Positions 4,387-17,551 are shown, counted from the first letter of the stretch. The stretch: 28,261 nucleotides of DNA from Dehalococcoidia bacterium (GCA_030667555.1 DAOUVR010000001.1:1-28261); one strand, 5' to 3'. Notes: generated by a model not told the origin, from the letters alone. Made by a program: numbers and translations.

Positions 4387-6315
4387 ATGGGCCATTTTGC
4401 AGGATATGCCGGAAAAATCTTACGTGTGAATCTTTCGACCGGGGATGTCAACAAGGTCCCGACTGCCAGCTATGAAGAGCTATTTCTCGGAGGAAGGGGG
4501 ATAGCGGTAAAGATCTATTGGGATGAGATTCCCCCAGATATTACAGCCTTCGACCCAGAGAACAGGCTCATTTTCATAACGGGTCCCATTGGTGGCGTTC
4601 CCGGTTTCGCTGGTTCTCGATGGCAAGTTTGTGGAAAATCCCCCGTTAGCAATCAATTCTCCTATTGCAACCTGGGCGGTTCGTGGGGTGCTGAGCTTAA
4701 ATTCGCTGGCTATGATGGCGTGGTCGTTTATGGGAAGGCGGATAAGCCAGTCTACCTGTGGGTCGATAATGATCGTGTAGAAATAAGAGAGGCAACTCAT
4801 CTTGTTGGCCAAGGCGATATTTCGTGTCGTGAGAGACTCAAGGAGGAACTAGGGAAATCGGTGCGGGTGGTGGCTGTGGGCCCAGCCGGTGAAAATATGG
4901 TAACCTTTGCCACTGTTTTGGCGGACAGTGATGCTACTGGCTCGGGTGGATTAGGGGCTGTGATGGGCTCCAAGAATCTGAAGGCCATCGCGGTAAGAGG
5001 GAGCAAGAGAAGGGTTGAGGTGGCTGACGCGGAGAGAGTTACAAAGCTGAGGAAACGGCTGCGTCGAGAAGCAAAGGACAGGCCTGAATTGTACTCAGCG
5101 GTAGTACCCGCGATAGTGCACTCAGATAGGCTCAAGAAAGATATATGTTACGGCTGCATCAGTGGATGTATGCGGGCAAACTATACCGCGATGAGTGGGA
5201 TCACGGGGAAATTCATGTGCCAGGCTGGCCTATTCTATGAAGCCCGAGCTCAACGCTATTATGGCGAAATAAGCGAGGTTCCCTTTGAGGCCAACAAGCT
5301 CTGCGATGAATATGGAGTCGATACCCGTGCCGTTGAGACCATGATCATGTGGCTCTCCAGATGCTACCAGGCAAAGCTCTTAACTGATGAGCAAACCGGC
5401 ATTCCTCTTTCTAAGCTGGGGAGCAGGGAATTTATCGAGACATTCCTGTGGAAAGTAGCTCACCGGGACGGATTTGGGGACCTGCTGGCTGAAGGCACCC
5501 ATAAAGCTGCCGAAACCATCGGCACTAAAGGCCGGGCGTTGCTTACAGATTATATTACTAGGACTGGCTCCAATGCCATCTATGGGCCCAGGTTATATAT
5601 TACAACTGGCCTTTTCTACGCCATGGAGCCAAGATTGCCCATTCAACAGCTTCACGAGATCAGTGCGCTGGCTATGTTTTGGGCTGTGGGGGCCATGGGG
5701 GTGGAGAATATCTACGTTACATCTGAGGTTATGCGGGCCATAGGTAAACGATTCTGGGGGAGTGAAATAGCAGCAGACTTCTCTACATATGAAGGAAAGG
5801 CCCTGGCCGCGGCCAAGATTCAGGACCGCCAGTACGCCAAGGAATGCCTCATTCTATGTGATTTCTGCTGGCCTTTTATTCATAGCACGCTATCTGCAGA
5901 CCACGTCGGTGACCCTACCCTGGAGAGCCAGGTTTGTGCGGCAGTAACGGGAAGGGATTTGGATGAGGATGGTCTATATGAAATTGGGGAGAGGGTCTTG
6001 AATTTGCAACGGGCCATCCTCACCAGGGAAGGACACGAAGGAAGAGATTATGATTCTCTGGAGGAGTTCAATTTCACTAGGCCGCTGAGAGGCGATTATG
6101 GCAACCCGAATTGCATAGTTCCTGGCAAGGATGGCGAGGTTTTATCCAGAAAAGGGATGGTTGTTGAACGGGACCAGTTTGAAAAGATGAAAGATGAGTA
6201 TTACCAAATTCGGGGTTGGGATGTCGCCACTGGTTTTCAAAGAAAGGCTAAACTGGAAAAATTAAATCTTGGCGAGGTTGCTAAGAAACTGGAGGGCTTA
6301 GGTCTTCTAGCTTAA
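4387..6315 (+). CDS. aor: Aldehyde:ferredoxin oxidoreductase family protein (W/Mo-pterin)
   Basis: GYAGKILRVNLS, GGRG, DPENRLIF, KSP, GGSWGAELKFAGYD, GLGAVMGSKNLKAI, CxxCxxxC, CDEYGVD, YYQIRGWD. RBS GGAG. Confidence 0.9.
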   Translation: MGHFAGYAGKILRVNLSTGDVNKVPTASYEELFLGGRGIAVKIYWDEIPPDITAFDPENRLIFITGPIGGVPGFAGSRWQVCGKSPVSNQFSYCNLGGSWGAELKFAGYDGVVVYGKADKPVYLWVDNDRVEIREATHLVGQGDISCRERLKEELGKSVRVVAVGPAGENMVTFATVLADSDATGSGGLGAVMGSKNLKAIAVRGSKRRVEVADAERVTKLRKRLRREAKDRPELYSAVVPAIVHSDRLKKDICYGCISGCMRANYTAMSGITGKFMCQAGLFYEARAQRYYGEISEVPFEANKLCDEYGVDTRAVETMIMWLSRCYQAKLLTDEQTGIPLSKLGSREFIETFLWKVAHRDGFGDLLAEGTHKAAETIGTKGRALLTDYITRTGSNAIYGPRLYITTGLFYAMEPRLPIQQLHEISALAMFWAVGAMGVENIYVTSEVMRAIGKRFWGSEIAADFSTYEGKALAAAKIQDRQYAKECLILCDFCWPFIHSTLSADHVGDPTLESQVCAAVTGRDLDEDGLYEIGERVLNLQRAILTREGHEGRDYDSLEEFNFTRPLRGDYGNPNCIVPGKDGEVLSRKGMVVERDQFEKMKDEYYQIRGWDVATGFQRKAKLEKLNLGEVAKKLEGLGLLA

Positions 6316-7100
6316 TAGTTCTTCGCCTTGAGCGTGACATCCCCGGATATGATAGTCGCCAGAGTTCCGTCAGGGCACCGCAGAAGCAGGTTCCCATCCT
6401 TATCGACCGATTCAGCATAGCCCTCCAAAACCTCATTACCCTGTTTTACCGCAACCTCTCTGCCTTTGGTATCCAGTCGCCGTTGCCATTCCTTGTGGAT
6501 AGGCTCACCGTGGTGCAATGCCTGACATAGCTCTTCGAATTCGCAAAGCAAGGACTCGAGCATATCCAGGCGGGAAACCTCCCGCCCAAGCATCTCCTTA
6601 AGGCTGGTAGCGGTTTCTGAAATCTCCGGCATCGACGAGGGATCGAGATTGACATTTAACCCGATGCCCACGATGGCGGAATTGGCTTGTTCTCCCTGGA
6701 CATCGCTCTCAATCAGGGCACCGCTTACCTTTTTCCCCTCGATAAGGACGTCGTTGGGCCACTTGAGAATCGGCTTGAGGTCGGTAAGCTTCTCAATGCT
6801 CTGGGCAACAGCTAGGGCAGCAATCATGTTGAGCAGGCGAAGCTGTTCAATCTCTGGGTAGAGGATAATGGAGAGCAGAATACTGTCATCTGGAGAGGTG
6901 ATCCACTTGCGGCCTAGACGCCCTCGGCCGGAGGTTTGGTAATCGGCAATGATGATGGTGCCCTCTCTTGCACCGTCTCTTATCGCCTGTTTTGCTACAT
7001 CCATGGTGGAGGAGGTAACCGGATAGTAGAGGGTCTTCTGGCCGATGAATCTTGTCCTTAGGTCGTCGATTGGGTAAGTTGAATACATCTGATTCGCCAT
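6312..7100 (-). CDS. birA: Biotin--[acetyl-CoA-carboxylase] ligase (no N-terminal HTH)
   Basis: SSTMD, QTSGRGRLGRKW, KWPNDVLIEGKK, GIGLNVN and C-terminal SH3-like ISGDV motifs. Confidence 0.92.
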   Translation of the reverse strand: MANQMYSTYPIDDLRTRFIGQKTLYYPVTSSTMDVAKQAIRDGAREGTIIIADYQTSGRGRLGRKWITSPDDSILLSIILYPEIEQLRLLNMIAALAVAQSIEKLTDLKPILKWPNDVLIEGKKVSGALIESDVQGEQANSAIVGIGLNVNLDPSSMPEISETATSLKEMLGREVSRLDMLESLLCEFEELCQALHHGEPIHKEWQRRLDTKGREVAVKQGNEVLEGYAESVDKDGNLLLRCPDGTLATIISGDVTLKAKNY

Positions 7101-7116
7101 TGTATATATAAGAGCC

Positions 7117-7493
7117 GGCCAAGCAAACCTATAAGCCGAGTTCTGTATCCCAACAGTGTTGGGGCGGTGACCATCTATCTAGCCCTGATGTTACCATCAG
7201 GGTCAAGCGACCCACCCGGGGGTTGTAACGAGGCCGGGCGTCCTCTTCCCCGCTATTTGGTCTTGCTCCGGAGGGGGTTTGCCCTGCCCCCGGTGTCACC
7301 ACCGGAGCGGTGAGCTCTTACCTCGCCATTTCACCCTTACTCCGATAAATCGGAGCGGTATGTTTCTGTGGCACTTTCCGTCCCCGATAACGTGAGTTAC
7401 CGAGGCCTGGGAGTTACCCAGCCTCCTGCCCGGTGGAGCTCGGACTTTCCTCCCCCCGATAAATCGGGGAGCGGTCACCCGGTTTGCCTGGCC
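7117..7493 (-). ncRNA. rnpB: RNase P RNA (bacterial type A)
   Basis: Minus strand has the universal elements GAGGAAAGUCC, GGAAAGUGCCACAGAAA, GGGUGAAA, GGUAAGAGCUCACC, GGCAAACCCC and ACAGAACUCGGCUUAUA, with a terminal P1 pairing (GGCCAGGCAAACC/GGUUUGCUUGGCC). Confidence 0.96.
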
Positions 7494-7528
7494 AACTTCA
7501 GTTTACAATAAAGCCGACGCCAAATCAA

Positions 7529-7933
7529 TTAAGTGCGTCTCAATGCCTTGCGGCTTAATGCATCTGCTGCTCTGTTCTGCTCCCTGGGGATGTGGACGAT
7601 GTCAATAGACGGAAATGCTTTCATCAGTCGTTGGGTTTGCTGAAATAGAGGCTTCAGCCCTGGATTCTTTACTCGGTATTCGCCTTTGATCTGCTTCACC
7701 AGAAGCTCTGAGTCAGACCTGACCTCAATATGCTCTGCGTGTAACCTTGCTGCTTCCTCGAGACCTTTGATGACAGCTTTATATTCTGCCTGGTTGTTTG
7801 TGGCGTAGCCAATACTATGCGAGGCCTCGAATATAACCGCTCCTGATTCATCCAGGATGACGACGCCTACGCCGGCAGGCCCTGGGTTGGGCTGAGCAGC
7901 GCCGTCGGTATAGATGGTTATGCGTTTTGCCAT
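7529..7933 (-). CDS. rnhA: Ribonuclease HI (archaeal/actinobacterial-like RNase H1 family)
   Basis: YTDGA..PNPGPAG, TNNQAEY, SDSELLVKQ, HIPREQN..AD; D-E-D-D catalytic set present. Confidence 0.92.
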   Translation of the reverse strand: MAKRITIYTDGAAQPNPGPAGVGVVILDESGAVIFEASHSIGYATNNQAEYKAVIKGLEEAARLHAEHIEVRSDSELLVKQIKGEYRVKNPGLKPLFQQTQRLMKAFPSIDIVHIPREQNRAADALSRKALRRT

Positions 7934-7940
7934 AGGCTAA

Positions 7941-9353
7941 TCACAGCATGAGGATAGTTTCTACGTGGTCGTCGTAGACCACAATGCGTTCGATCAAATG
8001 TTGAAGCAGCGCTTTTCTTGCTGGTGACGTCATGGTGTCCCATCGCTCTCGAAGCTCTTCTAGCTTCTCCAGCATATACTCCTTCCGGTGCTCGGAGGTT
8101 ATCTCCTGCTTTGCTTCAGCTTCAATAAGGGCAACCCTTTGCTCCCAAAGACGCCTCTCTAAAAGCAAATCCCCACTCACAACTCGGAATTCTTCCAGGG
8201 AGATAGCACCCTCGGTCGCCTGGTCGAGGTACTCTCGGAATTTTCGATCCAAAGCCTTCAGCTTTCTCTCTAGCCGCGTGTGCTCTGACGTTTCGTCAGT
8301 GGAATCACGCACCTTAGTCAATTTTGCCAGAGCCTCAGGATTGCTTGAACTCCGTAGTGTGTCGAGCACAAAGCCCTCTAAATCGTCAGCTCTCCTTGTA
8401 TGGTATTGGCAAACGCTTTGATTGGTTCTCGACTGGCACTGGTAGTAGCGATATTCCCCCTTCCTCTTCCCCCCCTTCTTGAGCGTTGTCCAGGTTTGAC
8501 TGCGGTTCACGCCGATCATCCTGTTGCCACAGTATCCACAGTAAGCCAGACCTGATAGGGGGAAAGGCGGCCTTTGGGCGCGAGCCCTTGGTTTTGTCTT
8601 GGCAGTAAGTCGTTCTTGCACTTTGTTGAAGGTGTCATGATTGATTATCGGTCGGTGGCTGTCGGGAACCCTGAAGCCGAAACGGGAGGATGTCCCCAGG
8701 TATGCCCGATTGCGCAGGATATCTCGGATGCCAACGATGCTCCACATGCCGCCTCTTCTGGTGGTGATGCCCTGCTCATTCAGGTATCGAGCGATGAGGC
8801 GCACGCCCATGTTTTTTTGAACATAAAGTCGATAAATGAGTTCTACATTGGCCGCCTCTTCAGGGACGATCTCCAGCCTCTTGTCGGCACCCAGCTTATA
8901 GCCATAGGGTGGCTTGCCCAATCCCTTTCCTCTGACTGCCCTGAGCTTCATCGCCTCCCTAACGGCATCTCCTCTTATTCCACTATGGCGCCGGGTAGAC
9001 CAAATCTGGATAACTATCTCCAAGGGGCTGGCAAGCTCTTCATCGATTGAGAGAACCTTTGCCCCGAGGGCATCAAGCTCGATAAGGCGATACATCAATT
9101 CCTGCGCGTCGGGGTGAAGGTGGCTAAGACTTTTCACCACAACTATAGTGTCCGTTCCATCCCTTCGGATGTAGCTGAGCATGCGCTGATACTGAGTTCG
9201 GCCAAGTTTCCCTGGGGAGCCCGCATCAACAAAGGTCATTACCGGCTGGTAACCCCGTTCCTGGCAAAAGCGAGCAAAGCCTTCCTGCTGCTCCACCAGT
9301 GAGGGGGCTTTCTCAGTTTCTTTGTTTACTCGAAAATAGCCAATCGTTCTCAT
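7941..9353 (-). CDS. Large serine recombinase homologue with a degenerate catalytic domain
   Basis: Resolvase-like N-terminus, PYGY, recombinase domain (IARYLN...WS...IRDILRNRAYLG...HRPII...F.KVQ), Zn ribbon (LSGLAYCGYCG...YYQC...C), coiled coil and LIERIVV C-terminus. Catalytic motif reads YFRVNK (not YxRVS) and SHLHP replaces DRLxR. Confidence 0.85.
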   Translation of the reverse strand: MRTIGYFRVNKETEKAPSLVEQQEGFARFCQERGYQPVMTFVDAGSPGKLGRTQYQRMLSYIRRDGTDTIVVVKSLSHLHPDAQELMYRLIELDALGAKVLSIDEELASPLEIVIQIWSTRRHSGIRGDAVREAMKLRAVRGKGLGKPPYGYKLGADKRLEIVPEEAANVELIYRLYVQKNMGVRLIARYLNEQGITTRRGGMWSIVGIRDILRNRAYLGTSSRFGFRVPDSHRPIINHDTFNKVQERLTAKTKPRARAQRPPFPLSGLAYCGYCGNRMIGVNRSQTWTTLKKGGKRKGEYRYYQCQSRTNQSVCQYHTRRADDLEGFVLDTLRSSSNPEALAKLTKVRDSTDETSEHTRLERKLKALDRKFREYLDQATEGAISLEEFRVVSGDLLLERRLWEQRVALIEAEAKQEITSEHRKEYMLEKLEELRERWDTMTSPARKALLQHLIERIVVYDDHVETILML

Positions 9354-9356
9354 CGT

Positions 9357-10058
9357 CTAGCTCACGTAAAGAATCCTCTCACAATTACCACACTGCACCA
9401 GTTCTTGACTTGCTCTTGCCCGCTGTAACTCTCTCACCGGGAGGACAATTCTGCACCCCTGACACATGCCCTGTTCAACCTTGGCCACTGCCCTGCCCTG
9501 TTTCTTTGTCCTTAGTTCCTCATAAAGCCTCAGGCTCGCTGCATCAACCCTTGAGCCGAGATCTTTTCGCTTCTGTTCAAGGTTAGCCAAGTTAGTGCTT
9601 AACCTATCCTGCTCCCGGGAAAGCTCGGCCTGCTCCTCCTTCCAGCTTTTCTTAAGACTTTTTACCTTCTGGCTTATCATCGCCAAGTTCGCCTGTGCTG
9701 CGTCCATTTCAGTCATTATGTCAAGTACTTTATCCTCCTCTTCCCTCCGTCTCTTTTTGAGATGTTCCGCCTGCTCATGAAGGCTTGCCAGCTCTTTGGG
9801 GTTTTTCACCGTGCCACCATAAAGCTTCTGCTCTATAACGGCGACCTTCGTTCGCAGATCCTCCACCTCCCACTCCCCGGCTCGCTGGCTTGCATTTAGC
9901 TCATCAACGCAGTTCTTCTGTGTGGCAAGATTAGCGCGGGCCTCATCTAGAGCATGGCTCTGGCCTAATCGGCTCTGCACGTTAGACAGAGCTTCCCTTT
10001 TCGCCTCTATCTCCAGGTCAACTTCTTGAAGCTCATATAGCTGCCTTCCTTTGCTCAC
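9357..10058 (-). CDS. C4-type zinc ribbon domain protein (coiled coil plus CxxC...CxxC)
   Basis: LYELQEVD, LYGG.VKNPKEL, long coiled coil, CQGCRIVLP...CGNCERIL. GTG at 10058 with upstream GAGGA is preferred over 10073, which would overlap the promoter's start site. Confidence 0.88.
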   Translation of the reverse strand: MSKGRQLYELQEVDLEIEAKREALSNVQSRLGQSHALDEARANLATQKNCVDELNASQRAGEWEVEDLRTKVAVIEQKLYGGTVKNPKELASLHEQAEHLKKRRREEEDKVLDIMTEMDAAQANLAMISQKVKSLKKSWKEEQAELSREQDRLSTNLANLEQKRKDLGSRVDAASLRLYEELRTKKQGRAVAKVEQGMCQGCRIVLPVRELQRARASQELVQCGNCERILYVS

Positions 10059-10076
10059 CTCACATCCTCTCACCTC

Positions 10077-10105
10077 ATTCTAATTTAGGGTGGGGGGGCT
10101 GTCAA
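10077..10105 (-). promoter_or_regulatory. Near-consensus sigma70 promoter for the Zn-ribbon/recombinase/rnhA/rnpB/birA unit
   Basis: Minus strand TTGACA-17 nt-TAGAAT. Confidence 0.75.
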
Positions 10106-10110
10106 TAACA

Positions 10111-10142
10111 ACAACAAAAATCCCCCTGATAAGTGAGGGGGA
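10111..10142 (-). terminator. Intrinsic terminator after tRNA-Ile2
   Basis: Stem TCCCCCT/AGGGGGA with 8-nt loop, followed by TTTTTGTTGT on the minus strand, about 10 nt after the tRNA CCA. Confidence 0.7.
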
Positions 10143-10151
10143 AGCATTACA

Positions 10152-10226
10152 TGGTGGGCTCGGCAGGATTCGAACCTACGACCAATCGGTTATGAGCCGA
10201 TCGCTCTGCCACTGAGCTACGAGCCC
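10152..10226 (-). tRNA. tRNA with CAT anticodon, most likely tRNA-Ile2 (lysidine)
   Basis: GGGCTCG acceptor, AGCTCAGTGG D arm, ATCGG-CTCATAA-CCGAT anticodon arm, GGTTCGAATCC T arm, encoded CCA. The GGCTCATAACCG context resembles Ile2 rather than elongator or initiator Met; isotype is inferred. Confidence 0.9.
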
Positions 10227-10705: not shown

Positions 10706-11548
10706 TCAGCTTTCTTGTGAGGTGGAGCGTTTTGCAGCGAAGCGATGGGTGAACGTTTGGCCAAACCCCATAGTTGTTTTATAGCCCACGCCGCTGTAAA
10801 AGGCGAATTCCGCCAACAGGTTTATAACCCTAAGCCAGTAAGCGTCATGCCTCAGCGCGACATACGAGCACGAACCTATGAAACCTACCTGTTTGCCTCC
10901 GGCAATTTCTACCGTACGTGTTTTGAGCTGACATTGGGATATTGCCACACATTCCTCGGCGTAACGCCTTACCTCCCTGGAGATGGTGATTGGTGACACC
11001 GCATTCCATCGGTCGGCCAGGCTGCCAAACACCAATCCTGGAAGCGGCAGAGGCACATTCTTCCCCCCCGACCTAAATGTAGTAGGCGAGGTGAAAAAGA
11101 GCTTGACCCTTCTGGGGGCGCTTCTGGCTTCAAGCAAATGCCCTTGAGCTAGCTCCTGATAGGAGGTTCGTCTGCTCAAGGGATGAGCGCCGCTTTCCAT
11201 GAAAACATCCTTGACTGAAAAGAGGGTGTTCTCCAGTTCAAACTCCTGAGGCAGCGATGGCAGCACTTTGTCAGCCAGCAGGCTTGAGAGACCGTCCTCA
11301 TAGCTGGTGAAGCGCAATATGCAAGCCTGGCCAGCATTGATACGAACTGTTTCTCTCCTCCCATGTAGGCCCATAAGGCCCGACACAGTGAAGGGCTTGG
11401 CCTCACTATCATCGTGTAGCTTGGCTCCCATCATGGGGTCAGCAGTGGCCACAAGTCGAAGAAATAGCGCGTGCGCTGCCTTGCCCAGGTAGGGGGACAA
11501 CAATGCTTCCTTGCGGACTTGTAGCGCGATGACGGCGCTTAGCAGCAT
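10706..11548 (-). CDS. cas6: CRISPR-associated endoribonuclease Cas6
   Basis: GKAAHALFL, KPFTVSGL, F.SPTTFRSGG, P.PGLVFGSLADRWN, GFIG, and G-rich loop FYSGVGYKTTMGFGQ. Confidence 0.95.
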   Translation of the reverse strand: MLLSAVIALQVRKEALLSPYLGKAAHALFLRLVATADPMMGAKLHDDSEAKPFTVSGLMGLHGRRETVRINAGQACILRFTSYEDGLSSLLADKVLPSLPQEFELENTLFSVKDVFMESGAHPLSRRTSYQELAQGHLLEARSAPRRVKLFFTSPTTFRSGGKNVPLPLPGLVFGSLADRWNAVSPITISREVRRYAEECVAISQCQLKTRTVEIAGGKQVGFIGSCSYVALRHDAYWLRVINLLAEFAFYSGVGYKTTMGFGQTFTHRFAAKRSTSQES

Positions 11549-11652
11549 TTCTTTTCGTTACCTCCAGTGAGCTTCTATGCCTAGTGAACTAGGATCCCCT
11601 TCTGACTATTAACGTCCTTTCTCGCAGCCAGCTATGACTTTGAGGCTGTTTC

Positions 11653-12765
11653 TCAAACACTTTGACGGCCGTCAACGCCTTGCAGGCTCATTCTCACCCA
11701 GCCGAGCGGTTCTCTAGCCTGCCCATCTCCAACGAGCCGCCTGGTCTTGGGGAAGACTTTGGGGAATAGCGAGCCCTGCCACTTCTCCAGGTGATAGGTC
11801 TCGACAACCATGCTTACCTCAGCAGAGGTCAACTTGGTCCCCAGGGTCTTGCCCAACCAACCGGTGCCCCAACCGATGGGCAGGAGGAATTCGCCAGACT
11901 GCAGTGAAGCCTGCCTCCTCGCCAACGCCTCGTAGAACCCCTGCAACTTCCAGATGCCGCAATCGCTGTAGAATTGAAGTTCGAGCTTGACTATCTCTGC
12001 GGAGAAGGCACGACAGCGTTCCACCAACTGGTCGAAAAAGTGTCGCCTGCGAAAGTGATACATTCGCCGCACCCTGCGTTCAGGCCGAAGAATATATCTA
12101 TCCAGAGTCAGGGCAGCCTCAATGGCGGTCCCTTTAGGGATCACCTCCAAAAAAGTTGGCTCTCCCCTTGGTTTGAGAGAAGGTGGCTGACCGCAAAGCG
12201 AAAAGACGGTGACCGGCAGTGCTCTGGGCATGACACCATCCTGTGGGTATGCGTCGGTTAACCGCAGGGCACGTAGCAGGTCGCGATGGCTGTCCCTCGG
12301 GTCGTAGTCGAATAGCCCCGCCTCCACCGAGTCATCGGCCTTTCTGGGGTCATTGCGCTCACCCAGCCCGCCCAGCGTGAGTGCGCCGTGGTGGGCGGAC
12401 CAGGCCAGGGCTGTGCGCAGCGCCCCCTTTATCGAGCTTCCGGGAATGTAAAGCCTGTCAAAGGCGTCCTTTACGTGCTCGCGAATATGGTCAGGGTGCC
12501 CTGCGGCGATATCTATCTCATAGGCTTTGACTCGCTCTATCTCCTCTGGGGTCAGCAGAAGGCTCAGCCTCGGATCCACTGCTGCCGCTGTGCGCCTCTT
12601 GTCGTCTATCTCCCCCAGCAGCCGATTCAGGTTCACTACCAGTGCCCGGTTCCCCTCCACAATGAAATCGTAGTCCTGGAGCAACTCACCTTTCCCTGAG
12701 CCGATGTGAATGGGTGAGAGGGTCTCCAGGGTCAGCCGATAGGTGCTGTGCAGCTCACGGCTCAT
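11653..12765 (-). CDS. csm5: Type III-A CRISPR RAMP protein Csm5
   Basis: LETLSPIHIGSG, DF.VEG, YIPGSSIKGALRTAL, LRALRLTD, LPIGWGTGWLGKT; position after csm4. Confidence 0.92.
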   Translation of the reverse strand: MSRELHSTYRLTLETLSPIHIGSGKGELLQDYDFIVEGNRALVVNLNRLLGEIDDKRRTAAAVDPRLSLLLTPEEIERVKAYEIDIAAGHPDHIREHVKDAFDRLYIPGSSIKGALRTALAWSAHHGALTLGGLGERNDPRKADDSVEAGLFDYDPRDSHRDLLRALRLTDAYPQDGVMPRALPVTVFSLCGQPPSLKPRGEPTFLEVIPKGTAIEAALTLDRYILRPERRVRRMYHFRRRHFFDQLVERCRAFSAEIVKLELQFYSDCGIWKLQGFYEALARRQASLQSGEFLLPIGWGTGWLGKTLGTKLTSAEVSMVVETYHLEKWQGSLFPKVFPKTRRLVGDGQAREPLGWVRMSLQGVDGRQSV

Positions 12766-13808
12766 CGAAATCCTCCCCCTCTCTGAACTCCAATAGGGAA
12801 GGCAAACCCGTAGCGGTACACAGGGTGCTTCTGGGGCTCCAGTTCCGGTGTAACATCTACCAGTTCCCCATAGCTAGGCTTGCCCAAGGAGCACAGCACA
12901 GACCCTTCACCGATGAAGCTAGCGGACTTGCGCCTCTGCCCCGCTCGCTCCGGGGAGTTCACCCACCCACCCCACTGAGTAAGCTCGTAGGCAGCGTGTC
13001 CATCTAGGACGCCGGCCTCTAGTTCTTGCAGTGAGGGGTGATAAAGCGAAAGGGTGATGAACGAATCTCCATCTGTAGGCCAGAATGGCGCAAATGGGCT
13101 GGCGGACTCGAACGAAAACTGGCCATAACCAGCGCTCCTTTCGCCACCAAGTCCAGCCTCAGATAAATAGTGTAGTGCGCTTTCCACAAGCCTTTTTGAA
13201 GCAGGGTCTTCAACTTCGAGAAGGAAATAGAGACCACAGCCAGGGGAGAAACCAACCTGTGCGGCATAATAGCTATGTGAAGCCACACCCAGTCGATCCA
13301 CGGCAACCTTGGGCACGGTGTGACGCCGCCACAGGATAGGTTCATCTCCCGCTAGCGGCAAGGCGGTGCGCTCCTGCTGTGTAAGCCATACCCTTCCACC
13401 CTGACAAAAGTTATCCCTAACCAGATGCCCGTCCAGGGGCTCGCTACGAAGTATGGGTTCCAAGATACCCTGGGAGATGAAGCGTACGTCTTTAAGCCGA
13501 ACACTTCCCTTTTCTTCGGTTTCTCTCTCAAGGGGTAGATTGACCATGGGATTGGGGAAAAGAAGCACCTCGCCAGCATAGGGGAACAGGGAGGTGATTC
13601 TGAAAGGTGGCTGCTCCTGAAACTGGGAGAGAAGCTCAACCAACGCATTCTCGCCCTCCCACATTCTCACACCTATGGCCAAAGCGCCAAAAAATGAATC
13701 GGAATGGAAGACTTCGTCCGTAGCCTCAATGCCCAGACTCGCTTCACCGAAGTGAAAGGCCGAGCGGGGCTTAAGCTTGTAGAGCCATATCTCTGCCATG
13801 GTCAACAT
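12762..13808 (-). CDS. csm4: Type III-A CRISPR RAMP protein Csm4
   Basis: FHFGE, FHSDSFFGAL, FRITSLFPY, PKVAVDR, GLGGERSAGYGQF, HPVYRYGFAFP. Confidence 0.94.
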   Translation of the reverse strand: MLTMAEIWLYKLKPRSAFHFGEASLGIEATDEVFHSDSFFGALAIGVRMWEGENALVELLSQFQEQPPFRITSLFPYAGEVLLFPNPMVNLPLERETEEKGSVRLKDVRFISQGILEPILRSEPLDGHLVRDNFCQGGRVWLTQQERTALPLAGDEPILWRRHTVPKVAVDRLGVASHSYYAAQVGFSPGCGLYFLLEVEDPASKRLVESALHYLSEAGLGGERSAGYGQFSFESASPFAPFWPTDGDSFITLSLYHPSLQELEAGVLDGHAAYELTQWGGWVNSPERAGQRRKSASFIGEGSVLCSLGKPSYGELVDVTPELEPQKHPVYRYGFAFPIGVQRGGGFR

Positions 13809-14624
13809 TTACCAGGAGAACGTCTGGCGTAACCAGTTCATCGCCTCCTCTTCCTTAACAATGAGTTCTCTCAGGGACAACCCCTTCTCGAAGGTCTTCT
13901 CCTCCAGATACCGCTCGCGGGTGCGGACGGTCAGTGAAAGCTCCTGGAAAGCGATCTTGCCACTGCCCCGGGTTCCCAGGCCACCGAGATAGTCATCCTC
14001 CAGAAACTGCATAGCGTCCAGCAGGTGCAGGAAACGGTCCACATCGGATTCCTCGTACACGTTGTAAACCAGTTCCAAGGGGGCAAAGATGGCGCCGGCA
14101 GGCACCCGCTCGACCTGGCGGGGAGTAGCCGCCGCGGTAACCCGGTCAAGGGATGTTTCCCATTTGACCTCGGTGAAGGGGAGTTCAGTCCTGGTCCTGG
14201 CCAGCCTTTGTGCGCTGTTCTCGTCAAGGGGCACATCCCGCACTATGAGGCGGGTTGGTAGCACGGCAAACCCTGCCGGTATGCCAAAGATGGGACAGAC
14301 CTGACAGTTTAAGTAGGCTTCTTCGTCGGGTATTCTGTTTCCCTTTTCGTCAAACTTGTAACAGGCATGGATACGAACTCCACCCATTGCCCATTGTTGA
14401 GATTTGTTATAGTGCTTTTCCAGCAGGGAGCGCAATTTTCCCTTTAGCGAGGAGCCGGGGATGTAGGGGCGGTTGGTAAGAGGGTCGCGCACCACAGGAT
14501 TGTCCAAACCGCCAATGGCTAAAGCTCTCCTTGCCGATCTGATGTGGAGGCCGGTTACGATTTCTATGCTGCCGGTGATAAATATCCTTCCATGCAACTG
14601 GATTTTACGTTCGGTTTCTGTCAT
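13809..14624 (-). CDS. csm3: Type III-A CRISPR backbone RNase Csm3
   Basis: TGLHI, IGGLDNPVVRDPLTNRPYIPGSSLKGKLRS (catalytic Asp retained), C..C Zn insert, EVKWE..LDR.T.AA.PRQVERVPAG, DDYLGG.GTRGSGK. Confidence 0.96.
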   Translation of the reverse strand: MTETERKIQLHGRIFITGSIEIVTGLHIRSARRALAIGGLDNPVVRDPLTNRPYIPGSSLKGKLRSLLEKHYNKSQQWAMGGVRIHACYKFDEKGNRIPDEEAYLNCQVCPIFGIPAGFAVLPTRLIVRDVPLDENSAQRLARTRTELPFTEVKWETSLDRVTAAATPRQVERVPAGAIFAPLELVYNVYEESDVDRFLHLLDAMQFLEDDYLGGLGTRGSGKIAFQELSLTVRTRERYLEEKTFEKGLSLRELIVKEEEAMNWLRQTFSW

Positions 14625-14633
14625 TGCACTCCC

Positions 14634-15134
14634 CTAGTCCCTGCCGCCGTGGTAGCGGTGATATGCGACAATGGCCTCAAAGAAATTCACTAAGCGCCTG
14701 AAGGAGTTGTAACGCTCCGTCCCTCCCATATTCGCCTTTTCCCCTGCCTCTGGCTCGTCTGGTTGCTCCAACACGATGTCAATAACGCGGCAAATGACCT
14801 CTCGCAGCTCCTCCACAGGAAATACATCCTGTCCATCCAGTGTTTCCTTCACTTTCTTTGACTGATATGCCAGCTTGGGCTTCAGCAGACGGAGCTCCCG
14901 CTGTGCTTCAGCCGCACTAGAGGGCCAGGTCATCTCGATCATATGAATATCACCGAGGATACCTCGTATTTGATGCGTGGCCAGGTTCATTTCTTTTAGC
15001 TTCCTACCTACACGCTCGGCGCAGTTTACCAGCACCTCGGCATCTCCATCGACAATGATCTTGCGCATTTCCGCTGAAGACACCAGTTTCTTTTGTGGCT
15101 GAGACTCTGCTGAAGACCCTTTCACCTGCGTCAT
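14634..15134 (-). CDS. csm2: Type III-A CRISPR small subunit Csm2
   Basis: THQIR, LKPKLAY, F..LVNFFEAIVAYH. ATG at 15134 with GGAGGG RBS overlaps the cas10 stop (ATGA), so it is preferred over 15167. Confidence 0.93.
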   Translation of the reverse strand: MTQVKGSSAESQPQKKLVSSAEMRKIIVDGDAEVLVNCAERVGRKLKEMNLATHQIRGILGDIHMIEMTWPSSAAEAQRELRLLKPKLAYQSKKVKETLDGQDVFPVEELREVICRVIDIVLEQPDEPEAGEKANMGGTERYNSFRRLVNFFEAIVAYHRYHGGRD

Positions 15135-17551
15135 AGTCCCTCCGTGCGAGTGAGCAGTTTCACCCACCGTGCCGCCAGTGCTATCTGAGGAAGCTCAACT
15201 GACAGGCGCGGGGCTTGCATTAGAGCTTCCCTTATATCTGCCAGTTGGGCTTGGGCCGGGCCTTCTACCCGTTCCATCATGCGGGAAAGATGGTAGGCTG
15301 CGTGCCACATCCAGGGGCCGTAGTGAATCGTTGGCCCATGGAACAGCCGCCTGTCGGCGTTCATCGTCTGTCCTTCGAGGTAGCTTTGGTGAAGCTCCAT
15401 TAATAGATTAAGCAGAGTTCGAGGCGCCTTACCCTGTTCCATCCGTCCATCGATGGCTATTATATCCTTCAAGATATCGCGCCACTCTCTCACCTTCTGA
15501 AACTGTGACCAGTTGAGCGTCTGGCCGAGGAAGGTGAAGGCGTTCTTCCCCGGCATTCGCTTGGCGCCGCTCTCCAAAGATTCTGTGGCTGCTTCAATTA
15601 GTTGATACAGAGGGAAGTGGGGGTCATCAACTGTCGTCCCGCCCGAGATGTGCACCAAGGGGTTGCAGCAAGTAAACTCTGAAAAGTCGCGGTGTATATT
15701 CCAGGCAAGCTCGGCTATCTCACTCCAGCTGATGGTGACAAGAAGGTCATCACCTCCGGTATAGATGGCGTAGACCTTGTCTTTTCCGTCATGGGGGTTC
15801 CTCGTCGCACACACGCTATTCAGCCAGCCCTCGAAGAAGAGACGGAGAAGGAAACTCATTGAAGAGACTCTGGATATGCTGGCATCTTCGCCGAGCCCAT
15901 GTTGGAAAAGCCATCCCACGTCGTCCACATCCATGCGCAGGACACCCAATAAAGGCACCCCTTCAGATGCCTGAGCAATGGTCTCAAAGTCCGCAATCTC
16001 TGCAGGCTCCTCCTTCTTTCGTGGTGATGCCTGGGCTAGAAGGCGAAAGCCAAGCGCTGGTGGATTCTTTGCTGCCTTGATAGCATTGACTACCTCGGTG
16101 CTCAGAAAGTCAGTGGAGTTCAGTTTCAGCAATGTCGCCCCTGGGCCGAGCCTATTCAAATCCACCTGATGGGGTTCATCCAGGAGCCTCACTACAAAGC
16201 CCAGACCAAAGAAGAAGAGCTTCTGCCATCCTTGAACCTGAACATCTTGCTGACCCTCTTGTCTGGGGGCGATAAGGAGATAGTTGGCATCCGCCAGTTG
16301 CTCTCCCAGGTGTTTGAGAGAATGGCACAGGTCACATTCTCTCTCTTCTCCCTCTCCGAGCTTATGGCGCGCATCCTCAGCTCCGCACACCGCGCATATG
16401 TCTGCAGGTTCTCTGGCACCTTTTGGTTTGAGAATCTCTTCATAGAATTCCCCTGGTGCCAGGTCGCCAAATGGCCGCCGCTTTGCCCAGCCAAGCTTTT
16501 TGTGGACACCAGCCCATGCTTCGGAGAAATGGCCGAAGTCCTGCGGGCACAGTTCTTGAGTTGTGAGAGCCAGGCACAGTCCATCGCGGTGATGCTTCAA
16601 TAACGCCTGTGAAAAATCTCTACGCAGCGATGATAGTGTCTGACCGTCGACGTGGTGTGCCAGAATATAAAAGTGCCCCCCGCCAGCATAGAGCAGGTTG
16701 ACGGTGTAGAGCCCTAACTGGCGTAACAGCCACAGGGCTGCTACCTCAGTCAGGAGTTCCAGGTAAAAGGAGCGCCCGCGAAGCCCTTTGGCTACCCCCT
16801 TGGAAGTCTGCGTGTAGAGGAAACGCTGCACGCCGCAAATATCACCGCCTATCAGTGACAGACATGGTTTCTCTTTCGCCGCATCAGAGCTGCCCGCGAG
16901 CAGTAAATCCACCTCAGCCTCAGAGATGCCGGAACGATACAGGCTAAGGGCGATGGCACAGGTGGTGCGGAGATGGTCAAACAGCGAGACATCGGGGATG
17001 TCCGCATTGTAGGCGCTGGGGATGCACCAGGTGAACTTGCACAGAAGGTGATAAAACGTATTGATGAGTGCTGGGAAATCTGTCCCATACAGCCCCGTGA
17101 CCGCTGCCGTTTCTCGGATAAAATTATCCCACAGTTCAGTGTAGGACTTCTCTGGTTCCTTGTCTGTATCTTGCTTGGGAAAGATAGTGTCCCTGTGGAG
17201 ATCCAACGGCTTTAAAGGAAAGTAGAAGGGGCTGCTATCGGTACCAACCTTTGAGAAGACGGACAGGAGCTGTTTGACAGCGGGGTTGCCCTCCTCCTGG
17301 TGTTCTCTTTCTAGGGACGATAGATGGTCTGCAAGCTGAATCAACTTGCTCAAGTAACCGTCAGGTCGGTTATGTGCCGAGGCCAGGCTGGCACTTTGGC
17401 TCCATTTCTGGCCAAAATGGTCCAGGATAAACTGGCGTGAGAGTAGGGCATGGGCCCGGTCCTTCTGTTCGAGCGGGTGAGAAGTTCGCTGCCAGAACTT
17501 CCCTACATCGTGGAGCAAAGCAGCAAGAACGAGGCTCTCTTCTTGGGACAT
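15131..17551 (-). CDS. cas10: Type III-A CRISPR Cas10/Csm1 with HD nuclease and Palm cyclase domains
   Basis: N-terminal LAALLHDVGKF (HD), IPDVSLFDHLRTTCAIA, GGDICGVQRF, LRGRSFYLELL, YAGGGHFY, CxxC..CxxC, LRMDVDDVG and intact YTGGDDL. RBS GGAG. Confidence 0.97.
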   Translation of the reverse strand: MSQEESLVLAALLHDVGKFWQRTSHPLEQKDRAHALLSRQFILDHFGQKWSQSASLASAHNRPDGYLSKLIQLADHLSSLEREHQEEGNPAVKQLLSVFSKVGTDSSPFYFPLKPLDLHRDTIFPKQDTDKEPEKSYTELWDNFIRETAAVTGLYGTDFPALINTFYHLLCKFTWCIPSAYNADIPDVSLFDHLRTTCAIALSLYRSGISEAEVDLLLAGSSDAAKEKPCLSLIGGDICGVQRFLYTQTSKGVAKGLRGRSFYLELLTEVAALWLLRQLGLYTVNLLYAGGGHFYILAHHVDGQTLSSLRRDFSQALLKHHRDGLCLALTTQELCPQDFGHFSEAWAGVHKKLGWAKRRPFGDLAPGEFYEEILKPKGAREPADICAVCGAEDARHKLGEGEERECDLCHSLKHLGEQLADANYLLIAPRQEGQQDVQVQGWQKLFFFGLGFVVRLLDEPHQVDLNRLGPGATLLKLNSTDFLSTEVVNAIKAAKNPPALGFRLLAQASPRKKEEPAEIADFETIAQASEGVPLLGVLRMDVDDVGWLFQHGLGEDASISRVSSMSFLLRLFFEGWLNSVCATRNPHDGKDKVYAIYTGGDDLLVTISWSEIAELAWNIHRDFSEFTCCNPLVHISGGTTVDDPHFPLYQLIEAATESLESGAKRMPGKNAFTFLGQTLNWSQFQKVREWRDILKDIIAIDGRMEQGKAPRTLLNLLMELHQSYLEGQTMNADRRLFHGPTIHYGPWMWHAAYHLSRMMERVEGPAQAQLADIREALMQAPRLSVELPQIALAARWVKLLTRTEGL

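Follow-up and report, generated by a model that had tools for sequence, protein, structure and literature searches.

Large serine integrases, which have been studied intensively as genome-engineering tools, are to our knowledge known only as enzymes of mobile elements. Those described, among them SPbeta SprA, Bxb1, PhiC31, Listeria A118/LI and TP901-1, share one domain order, in which a resolvase-type N-terminal domain is followed by the alpha-E helix, a recombinase domain and a zinc ribbon into which a coiled coil is inserted. In true integrases, each half of the att site is held by the recombinase and zinc-ribbon domains. Tn3/gamma-delta resolvase also serves as a repressor and, at sites II and III of res, forms non-catalytic architectural dimers, providing a precedent for the binding of uncut DNA, either in regulation or within a nucleoprotein complex.

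The gene described here lies within a 28,261-nucleotide stretch of DNA from a Dehalococcoidia bacterium, which is referred to as the window. Its product has the domain order of the large serine integrases listed above, but lacks both the Ser nucleophile and the Arg/Asp catalytic cluster, and its constraint has shifted off the catalytic domain. Unlike integrases of mobile elements, the gene has no att sites, cargo or prophage; it is present in single copy at a fixed locus and is inherited vertically. Tn3/gamma-delta resolvases stay active, are small and carry a simple helix-turn-helix, whereas the sequence of the present protein indicates that catalysis has been abolished, and its DNA-binding apparatus is of the large serine recombinase (LSR) type. 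The best curated-model matches are the NCBIfam models for XisF, CcrA and CcrB, the developmental and SCC cassette LSRs. The scores (73-87 bits) are far under the cut-offs of 375-900 (XisF, 80 versus 375; CcrB, 87 versus 900), and thus the protein is not a member of these groups. No curated family or defence system for it was found in NCBIfam or PADLOC, and a full-text literature search turned up no account of an LSR family that is catalytically dead and domesticated.

The gene immediately upstream encodes a protein with the coiled-coil hairpin and C4 zinc ribbon of the CT398/CdsZ/HP0958 (FlgZ)/MSMEG_4306/ML1638 family. This family has been reported to bind sigma-54/RpoN in Chlamydia and Helicobacter and, according to a 2026 preprint, is predicted to lie across RNA polymerase beta-prime (bioRxiv 10.64898/2026.07.15.738315). 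Its linkage to rnhA and the RNase P RNA in other phyla has been documented (PMC3372290), and a recombinase-like partner is mentioned in neither of these two sources.

Domain architecture and genomic setting

The open reading frame runs for 470 codons without a stop or frameshift, its product begins with MRTIGYFRVNKE, and the GC content across it (0.51-0.54) equals that of the window. All three Pfam domains score above their curated cut-offs: Resolvase (PF00239, aa 4-118, 53.9 bits versus a cut-off of 23.3), Recombinase (PF07508, aa 164-250, 70.1 bits) and Zn_ribbon_recom (PF13408, aa 265-334, 54.1 bits). The four zinc-ribbon cysteines, C272, C275, C306 and C315, are invariant among 78 homologues. 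An AlphaFold2 model built from a 78-sequence alignment has a mean pLDDT of 82.6 and places long helices at residues 353-380, 386-414 and 420-440, which form the coiled coil, with C-terminal strands after them. The predicted structure therefore contains the coiled-coil arm within the zinc-ribbon domain that the LSR structural family needs, and this region aligns to that of LI integrase in a PDB sequence match. The first-pass annotation had described the recombinase domain, four-Cys ribbon, coiled coil and C-terminus as intact over the 470 residues, and the Pfam matches, the invariant cysteines and the model all agree with that description.

A comparison of the model with Bxb1/A118 integrase had been suggested earlier. 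Its best Foldseek matches are structures of the full-length SPbeta, Bxb1 and PhiC31 integrases bound to DNA, together with the C-terminal domain of LI integrase (E values of 1e-20 to 1e-14). Large serine integrases are the top PDB sequence matches too. Also among the Foldseek matches were 1gdt, 5cy1 and 2r0q, which we take to be structures of the Tn3/gamma-delta resolvase type. The N-terminal domain of the model superimposes on the TP901-1 catalytic domain with a TM score of 0.70-0.72; the low global TM scores are those expected of a flexible multidomain protein. Thus, the N-terminal domain has kept its fold and has lost its active site. The features of the locus are listed in Table 1.

Table 1. 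Features of the LSR homologue gene and its surroundings (window coordinates)
Feature	Position	Strand	Basis or remark
Dead LSR homologue gene	7941..9353	-	470 aa (P0001); Pfam Resolvase + Recombinase + Zn_ribbon_recom; Foldseek
Degenerate resolvase-type N-terminal domain, aa 1-118	9000..9353	-	PF00239; TM to TP901-1 catalytic domain
Asn10 codon AAC at the Ser-nucleophile position	9324..9326	-	HMMER alignment; position variable across family
S77-H78-L79-H80-P81 in place of the D-R-L-x-R cluster	9111..9125	-	Alignment to gamma-delta resolvase and TP901-1
Alpha-E helix, linker and recombinase domain, aa 119-255	8589..8999	-	Most conserved part
Zinc beta-ribbon domain, aa 256-340, four invariant Cys	8334..8588	-	PF13408
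Coiled-coil arm and C-terminal strands, aa 341-470	7944..8333	-	AF2 helices 353-440, strands 454-468
CT398/CdsZ/COG1579-type gene (coiled-coil hairpin + C4 zinc ribbon)	9357..10073	-	Pfam PF24481 + PF02591
RNase HI gene (rnhA)	7529..7933	-	Pfam RVT_3 and RNase_H
rnpB, RNase P RNA class A	7116..7490	-	Rfam RF00010, 297 bits
Sigma-70-type promoter TTGACA-17-TAGAAT, ahead of the operon	10077..10105	-	11/12 matches to consensus
tRNA-Met (CAT) and terminator hairpin, upstream of the operon	10121..10226	-	

The gene is packed tightly between its neighbours, as had been noted: it starts 3 nt (9354-9356) past the stop codon of the zinc-ribbon gene, whose product matches the NCBIfam CdsZ model below the cut-off, and it ends 7 nt (7934-7940) before rnhA. 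A search of the flanks for direct or inverted repeats returned only short matches at chance level, in keeping with the earlier remark that cargo and att-like repeats are absent. This arrangement recurs throughout the class. At 42 loci, the zinc-ribbon gene is directly upstream, typically at a distance of 0-8 nt, and rnhA is usually directly downstream. Among the best 80 of 517 species-level loci, counting those with room on the contig, the zinc-ribbon gene lies within 200 nt upstream in 76 of 77 (the remaining gap is about 240 nt), rnhA is directly downstream in 56 of 72, and rnpB is within 1.2 kb downstream in 51 of 72. In some lineages rnhA is missing and the LSR homologue gene abuts rnpB directly. 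In three relatives that do not carry the gene (one genome of the same family and two of the same order), the zinc-ribbon gene abuts rnhA-rnpB, pointing to either a clean insertion or a clean deletion.

In the 160 nt upstream of the zinc-ribbon gene, the 38 loci compared share only a promoter, TTGACAGC-N13-TAGAAT, and a T-rich tract upstream of it, and no long conserved dyad was seen there. The promoter (TTGACAGC...TAGAAT) is kept at most loci of the same family and is found in similar form in several other families; its repetition elsewhere in the window's genome was not telling. The tRNA-Met gene is upstream of the operon at only 11 of the 38 loci. Contigs from RNA libraries cover the LSR homologue gene at low depth, mostly from relatives, and one of 212 nt (2 mismatches) spans its junction with rnhA; DNA carry-over might account for any of these contigs.

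Several further observations concern the surroundings. In RNA libraries, the depth over rnpB was about 10,000-fold above that over the open reading frames. The gap between rnhA and rnpB (7491-7528) is just 38 nt, and no sigma-70-like promoter was detected in it. As the near-consensus operon promoter is conserved across families, rnpB may be transcribed with the operon and processed from its transcript. A gene for a BirA-type biotin-protein ligase (6312-7100, minus strand) converges on rnpB, and a 642-aa open reading frame lies at 4387-6315 (plus strand). Directly upstream of the tRNA-Met gene is a type III-like CRISPR-Cas effector cluster (10706-17551, minus strand) comprising Cas6 (10706-11548), RAMP proteins (11653-12765 and 12762-13808) and open reading frames up to one of 806 aa, with Pfam applied to Cas6 and one RAMP protein. 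Cas6 also adjoins the operon in two relatives (loci L005 and L006).

Loss of the active site and descent of the family

The first-pass annotation had read the nucleophile motif as carrying Asn in place of Ser and the DRLxR cluster as replaced by SHLHP. Both readings were confirmed by HMMER alignments, in which N10 falls onto the Ser nucleophile of TP901-1 integrase and gamma-delta/Tn3 resolvase, and S77-H78-L79-H80-P81 falls onto D67-R68-L-G-R71 of the resolvase. Of the active-site Arg/Asp set (R8, R45, D67, R68 and R71 in resolvase numbering) and the SG motif, the window's protein has kept R8, and R52, D77, R78, R81 and S46-G47 have been replaced. The loss is not peculiar to this protein. In 116 close homologues, position 10 is hypervariable (T, A, S, E, L, G, D or P), H predominates at position 78 (R68 of resolvase), and P does so at position 81 (R71). 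When 81 representatives of this family, referred to below as the dead family, were compared with the 19 nearest active relatives, residues V9, S10, S46, G47, R52, D77, R78 and R81 were conserved in 89-100% of the active set versus 4-26% of the dead set; Ser occupies position 10 in 100% of the active relatives versus 13% of the dead family, and R78 and R81 are conserved in 100% versus 4-5%. The boundary between the two sets is sharp: among the 150 best representatives, all of those scoring above about 165 bits are without the catalytic motifs, and below this score canonical proteins with xYxRVS and (F/L)DRFGR begin to appear. Within the N-terminal domain of the dead family, Y6, C30 and F41 are invariant and G5, F7, V71, L79 and W118 nearly so. 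These residues are mostly hydrophobic, and no new polar pocket is evident from them.

Since none of the orthologues at the locus keeps the YxRVS/DRLxR set, the loss is family-wide and the gene is not a recent pseudogene, the alternative that the first-pass annotation had raised. In a maximum-likelihood tree, the active/dead label needs two changes, of which well-supported branches force just one, and the AU test does not reject monophyly of the dead set (p = 0.12). Judged from the sequences, the catalytic residues were lost before the family diversified.

More than 100 homologues covering the full length of about 470 aa, with identities down to 41%, were obtained in a protein search, and those with a named source are annotated as Dehalococcoidia or Chloroflexota metagenome-assembled genomes. 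Within the same taxonomic family, 19 of 24 genomes carry one intact orthologue (52-93% identity). Exactly one match each at E <= 1e-40 was found in 220 of 401 sampled Dehalococcoidia genomes, a count that includes the unpublished genome G244 (219 of 400 when it is excluded). The distribution is nearly all-or-none by taxonomic family (28/28, 27/27, 23/26 and 8/8 versus 0/11, 0/12 and 0/12). Several lineages, among them 3 of the 24 genomes of the same family, have lost the gene cleanly, and it is therefore dispensable there. In approximately 350 Chloroflexota genomes outside the class, no member of the dead type was seen, and only two of these genomes gave matches (about 1e-36). One contains two full-length copies with canonical YTRIS...VDRLCRSVR motifs, which are thus ordinary active LSRs; in the other, the match is broken by a TGA, with its N-terminal part unaligned and its motifs unreadable. 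In an exhaustive search of 1.84 billion cluster representatives, 188 proteins passed E <= 1e-30, compared with 28,068 LSR-like ones at E <= 1e-3. When species-representative genomes were scanned with a pattern, 517 loci were confirmed, and the best 80 of these all belong to metagenome-assembled genomes named Dehalococcoidia, Dehalococcoidales, Chloroflexota or similar. The 85 named records are likewise all metagenome-assembled genomes, with no cultured host among them.

All full-length orthologues have intact frames without internal stops, and conservation extends across the class to about 30% identity. Pairwise identities of the LSR homologue and of the zinc-ribbon protein rise and fall together (Spearman rho of 0.93, 861 locus pairs), a value that we take as a description and not as a test, as kin are not independent. 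The single copy, the fixed locus and this co-divergence with the neighbour show that the gene is not mobile, and the alternative of a patchy, mobile gene, which had been raised at the outset, fails. The nearest active relatives are found in phage-like contigs, one adjoining a gene of the Cro/cI helix-turn-helix type and another lying among many small open reading frames with a DNA methyltransferase gene; these contexts fit descent from a mobile-element integrase.

One divergent homologue (419 aa; genome G031, L042:1288-2547) keeps the recombinase and zinc-ribbon domains, and over 245 aa it shares 43% identity with the window's protein. A Resolvase domain could not be recognised in it, and its gene lies beside neither the zinc-ribbon gene nor rnpB; a PIN-domain gene is nearby. 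In the genus of this genome (g25), matches at about 1e-60 are present in 22 of 22 species. This homologue may represent an offshoot of the dead family that has moved to another locus and been reduced further.

Shift of constraint towards the DNA-binding domains

Nei-Gojobori estimates from five genomes of the same genus as the window (dS of 0.16-0.47) gave dN/dS values of 0.22-0.26 for the LSR homologue, on par with those of both neighbours (0.15-0.39 for the zinc-ribbon gene and 0.17-0.45 for rnhA). A within-genus value of about 0.25 is only moderate constraint. By domain, dN/dS was 0.26 in the N-terminal domain, 0.16 in the alpha-E helix and linker, 0.15 in the recombinase domain, 0.19 in the zinc ribbon, 0.40 in the coiled coil and 0.17 in the C-terminal tail; with every domain below 0.41, the purifying selection that the first-pass annotation had proposed looking for in the C-terminal domains is present. 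Together with the shared loss of catalytic residues, the fixed locus and the co-divergence, it lends good support to the view put forward there that this is a domesticated, catalytically dead LSR.

Over longer distances, the two sets of proteins are conserved in different places. The two sets are equally divergent overall (mean pairwise identity of 31% in each). The mean pairwise identity of the N-terminal domain is 23% in the dead family versus 40% in the active relatives, while that of the linker and recombinase domain is 45% versus 31%, and that of the zinc ribbon is 40% versus 36%. As the active set was picked by similarity to the dead query, its similarity in the recombinase and zinc-ribbon domains should be inflated, making the contrast conservative. 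In the 78-sequence alignment, 35 of the 39 invariant columns fall within residues 142-319. Residues conserved only in the dead family are N215, T221, Y222, R224, G226 and H233 (within 215-233) and, in the zinc ribbon, R284, W288, G294 and Y303; the conserved residues of the recombinase and zinc-ribbon domains are in part fold determinants common to active LSRs. Thus, the catalytic domain has lost constraint and the DNA-binding recombinase and zinc-ribbon domains have gained it.

Possible roles of the protein

These results suggest that the gene encodes an anciently domesticated, catalytically dead LSR, which probably acts as a nucleic-acid-binding protein (the nucleic acid probably being DNA) together with its operon partner. 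The ancestor would have been a large serine integrase of a phage or mobile element, captured early in the Dehalococcoidia between the CT398/COG1579-type zinc-ribbon gene and rnhA-rnpB. It would then have lost its whole active site and been inherited vertically as a single-copy host gene, with selection now falling mainly on its recombinase and zinc-ribbon domains. The rest of the protein, namely the dead N-terminal domain, alpha-E helix and coiled coil, would be retained as a scaffold, probably for dimerisation, and the protein would most likely bind a conserved nucleic-acid target, probably duplex DNA as a dimer, leaving it uncut. Most likely, it does so in concert with the translationally coupled zinc-ribbon protein: the LSR homologue essentially never occurs without the zinc-ribbon gene, whereas the latter occurs without the former, and this one-sided dependence and the 0-8 nt junctions suggest that the two proteins work together. 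Structure prediction of a complex of the two scored 0.00, which counts neither for nor against binding.

No candidate binding site was found at the locus, in the conserved promoter region (38 loci) or genome-wide. A genome-wide dyad scan did bring up a double-hairpin repeat of about 50 nt, GTAGTTGCC-[GCCTGAT..ATCAGGC]-[GCCCAAT..ATTGGGC]-GGCAACTAC, which was ruled out as a class-wide target as it is limited to two genera, the present genus and one other of the same family. The window's genome has 7 copies with exact arms, all outside the window and often near contig ends (C19:3788-3838, C29:418-467, C40:6160-6209, C64:9467-9516, C83:1212-1261, C98:2392-2441 and C162:5121-5170), with compensatory changes in the second hairpin. 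Copies often lie beside CCCTCTCCC..GGGAGAGGG hairpins (18 copies), and the repeat looks like a REP/MITE-type element.

Other roles have to be weighed against a non-cutting binder that works with the zinc-ribbon protein. The dead integrase could sit on a conserved chromosomal attachment site, which might lie within or close to rnpB or the operon, and thereby block the integrases of related phages, which corresponds to the dominant-negative inhibitor considered in the first-pass annotation. The phage-borne nature of the nearest active relatives would fit such a guardian of attB, a conserved host attB would explain why the recombinase and zinc-ribbon domains are so highly conserved, and the dispensability of the gene in some lineages is often seen with defence genes. 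However, strictly vertical, single-copy, fixed-locus evolution like that of a housekeeping gene is unusual for defence genes, PADLOC gave no significant match (only a marginal 18-bit hit), an att-like site was found neither at the locus nor in the promoter region, and the coupling to the zinc-ribbon gene is left without an explanation. We therefore consider this role unlikely. A retargeting of the domains to structured RNA or an RNA:DNA hybrid, within a pathway involving RNase HI and the RNase P RNA, would account for the persistent linkage to rnhA (56/72) and rnpB (51/72) and for the lineages in which the gene is directly next to rnpB. We know of no LSR domain that binds RNA, and this counts against such a role. 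Moreover, the linkage of the zinc-ribbon gene, rnhA and rnpB is older than the insertion, existing where the LSR homologue is absent and also in other phyla (PMC3372290), so that the adjacency may be inherited and not functional. As rnpA is present in 37 of 41 related genomes with or without the LSR homologue, the idea that the protein replaces RnpA was rejected, and RNA or R-loop binding in general appears distinctly improbable.

That the protein is still a recombinase, using some other nucleophile or forming a regulatory subunit for an active serine recombinase whose gene lies elsewhere, might be argued from the invariant Y6, the frequent R8 and the minority of the family with Ser at position 10. 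Yet no possible nucleophile is shared across the family, which has lost the Arg/Asp cluster throughout, no inverted or direct target repeats are found at the locus, and most relatives have just this one match. As the window's genome (81% complete) contains no other Resolvase-domain gene, partnership with a resident active recombinase is unlikely, and we give continued recombination very little weight. Least credible of all is a decaying remnant without function, a pseudogene in the making: the gene has indeed been lost in several lineages, but its frame is intact in all full-length matches, dN/dS is 0.22-0.26 in every pair, and it is conserved class-wide down to about 30% identity.

Within the reading of the protein as a non-cutting nucleic-acid binder, a more specific role can be offered only tentatively, and on balance it is doubtful: the dead integrase might team up with the RNA-polymerase-associated CT398/COG1579 zinc-ribbon protein in a two-protein module and be the sequence-specific anchor of that module on DNA. 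Its att-reading domains would then bring the zinc-ribbon protein to particular chromosomal sites, and RNA polymerase or a sigma factor with it. If true, an integrase would have given rise to a kind of transcription or chromosome-organising factor not known before.

The family appears to be an LSR-derived pseudoenzyme that about half of the sampled Dehalococcoidia keep as a host gene. As far as the literature search shows, it would be the first case in which a bacterial host has reused the DNA-recognition apparatus of an LSR without recombination, and it would provide a natural instance in which an LSR recognises its site without catalysis. It also gives a way into the poorly understood CT398/COG1579 family, with which it is strictly coupled.
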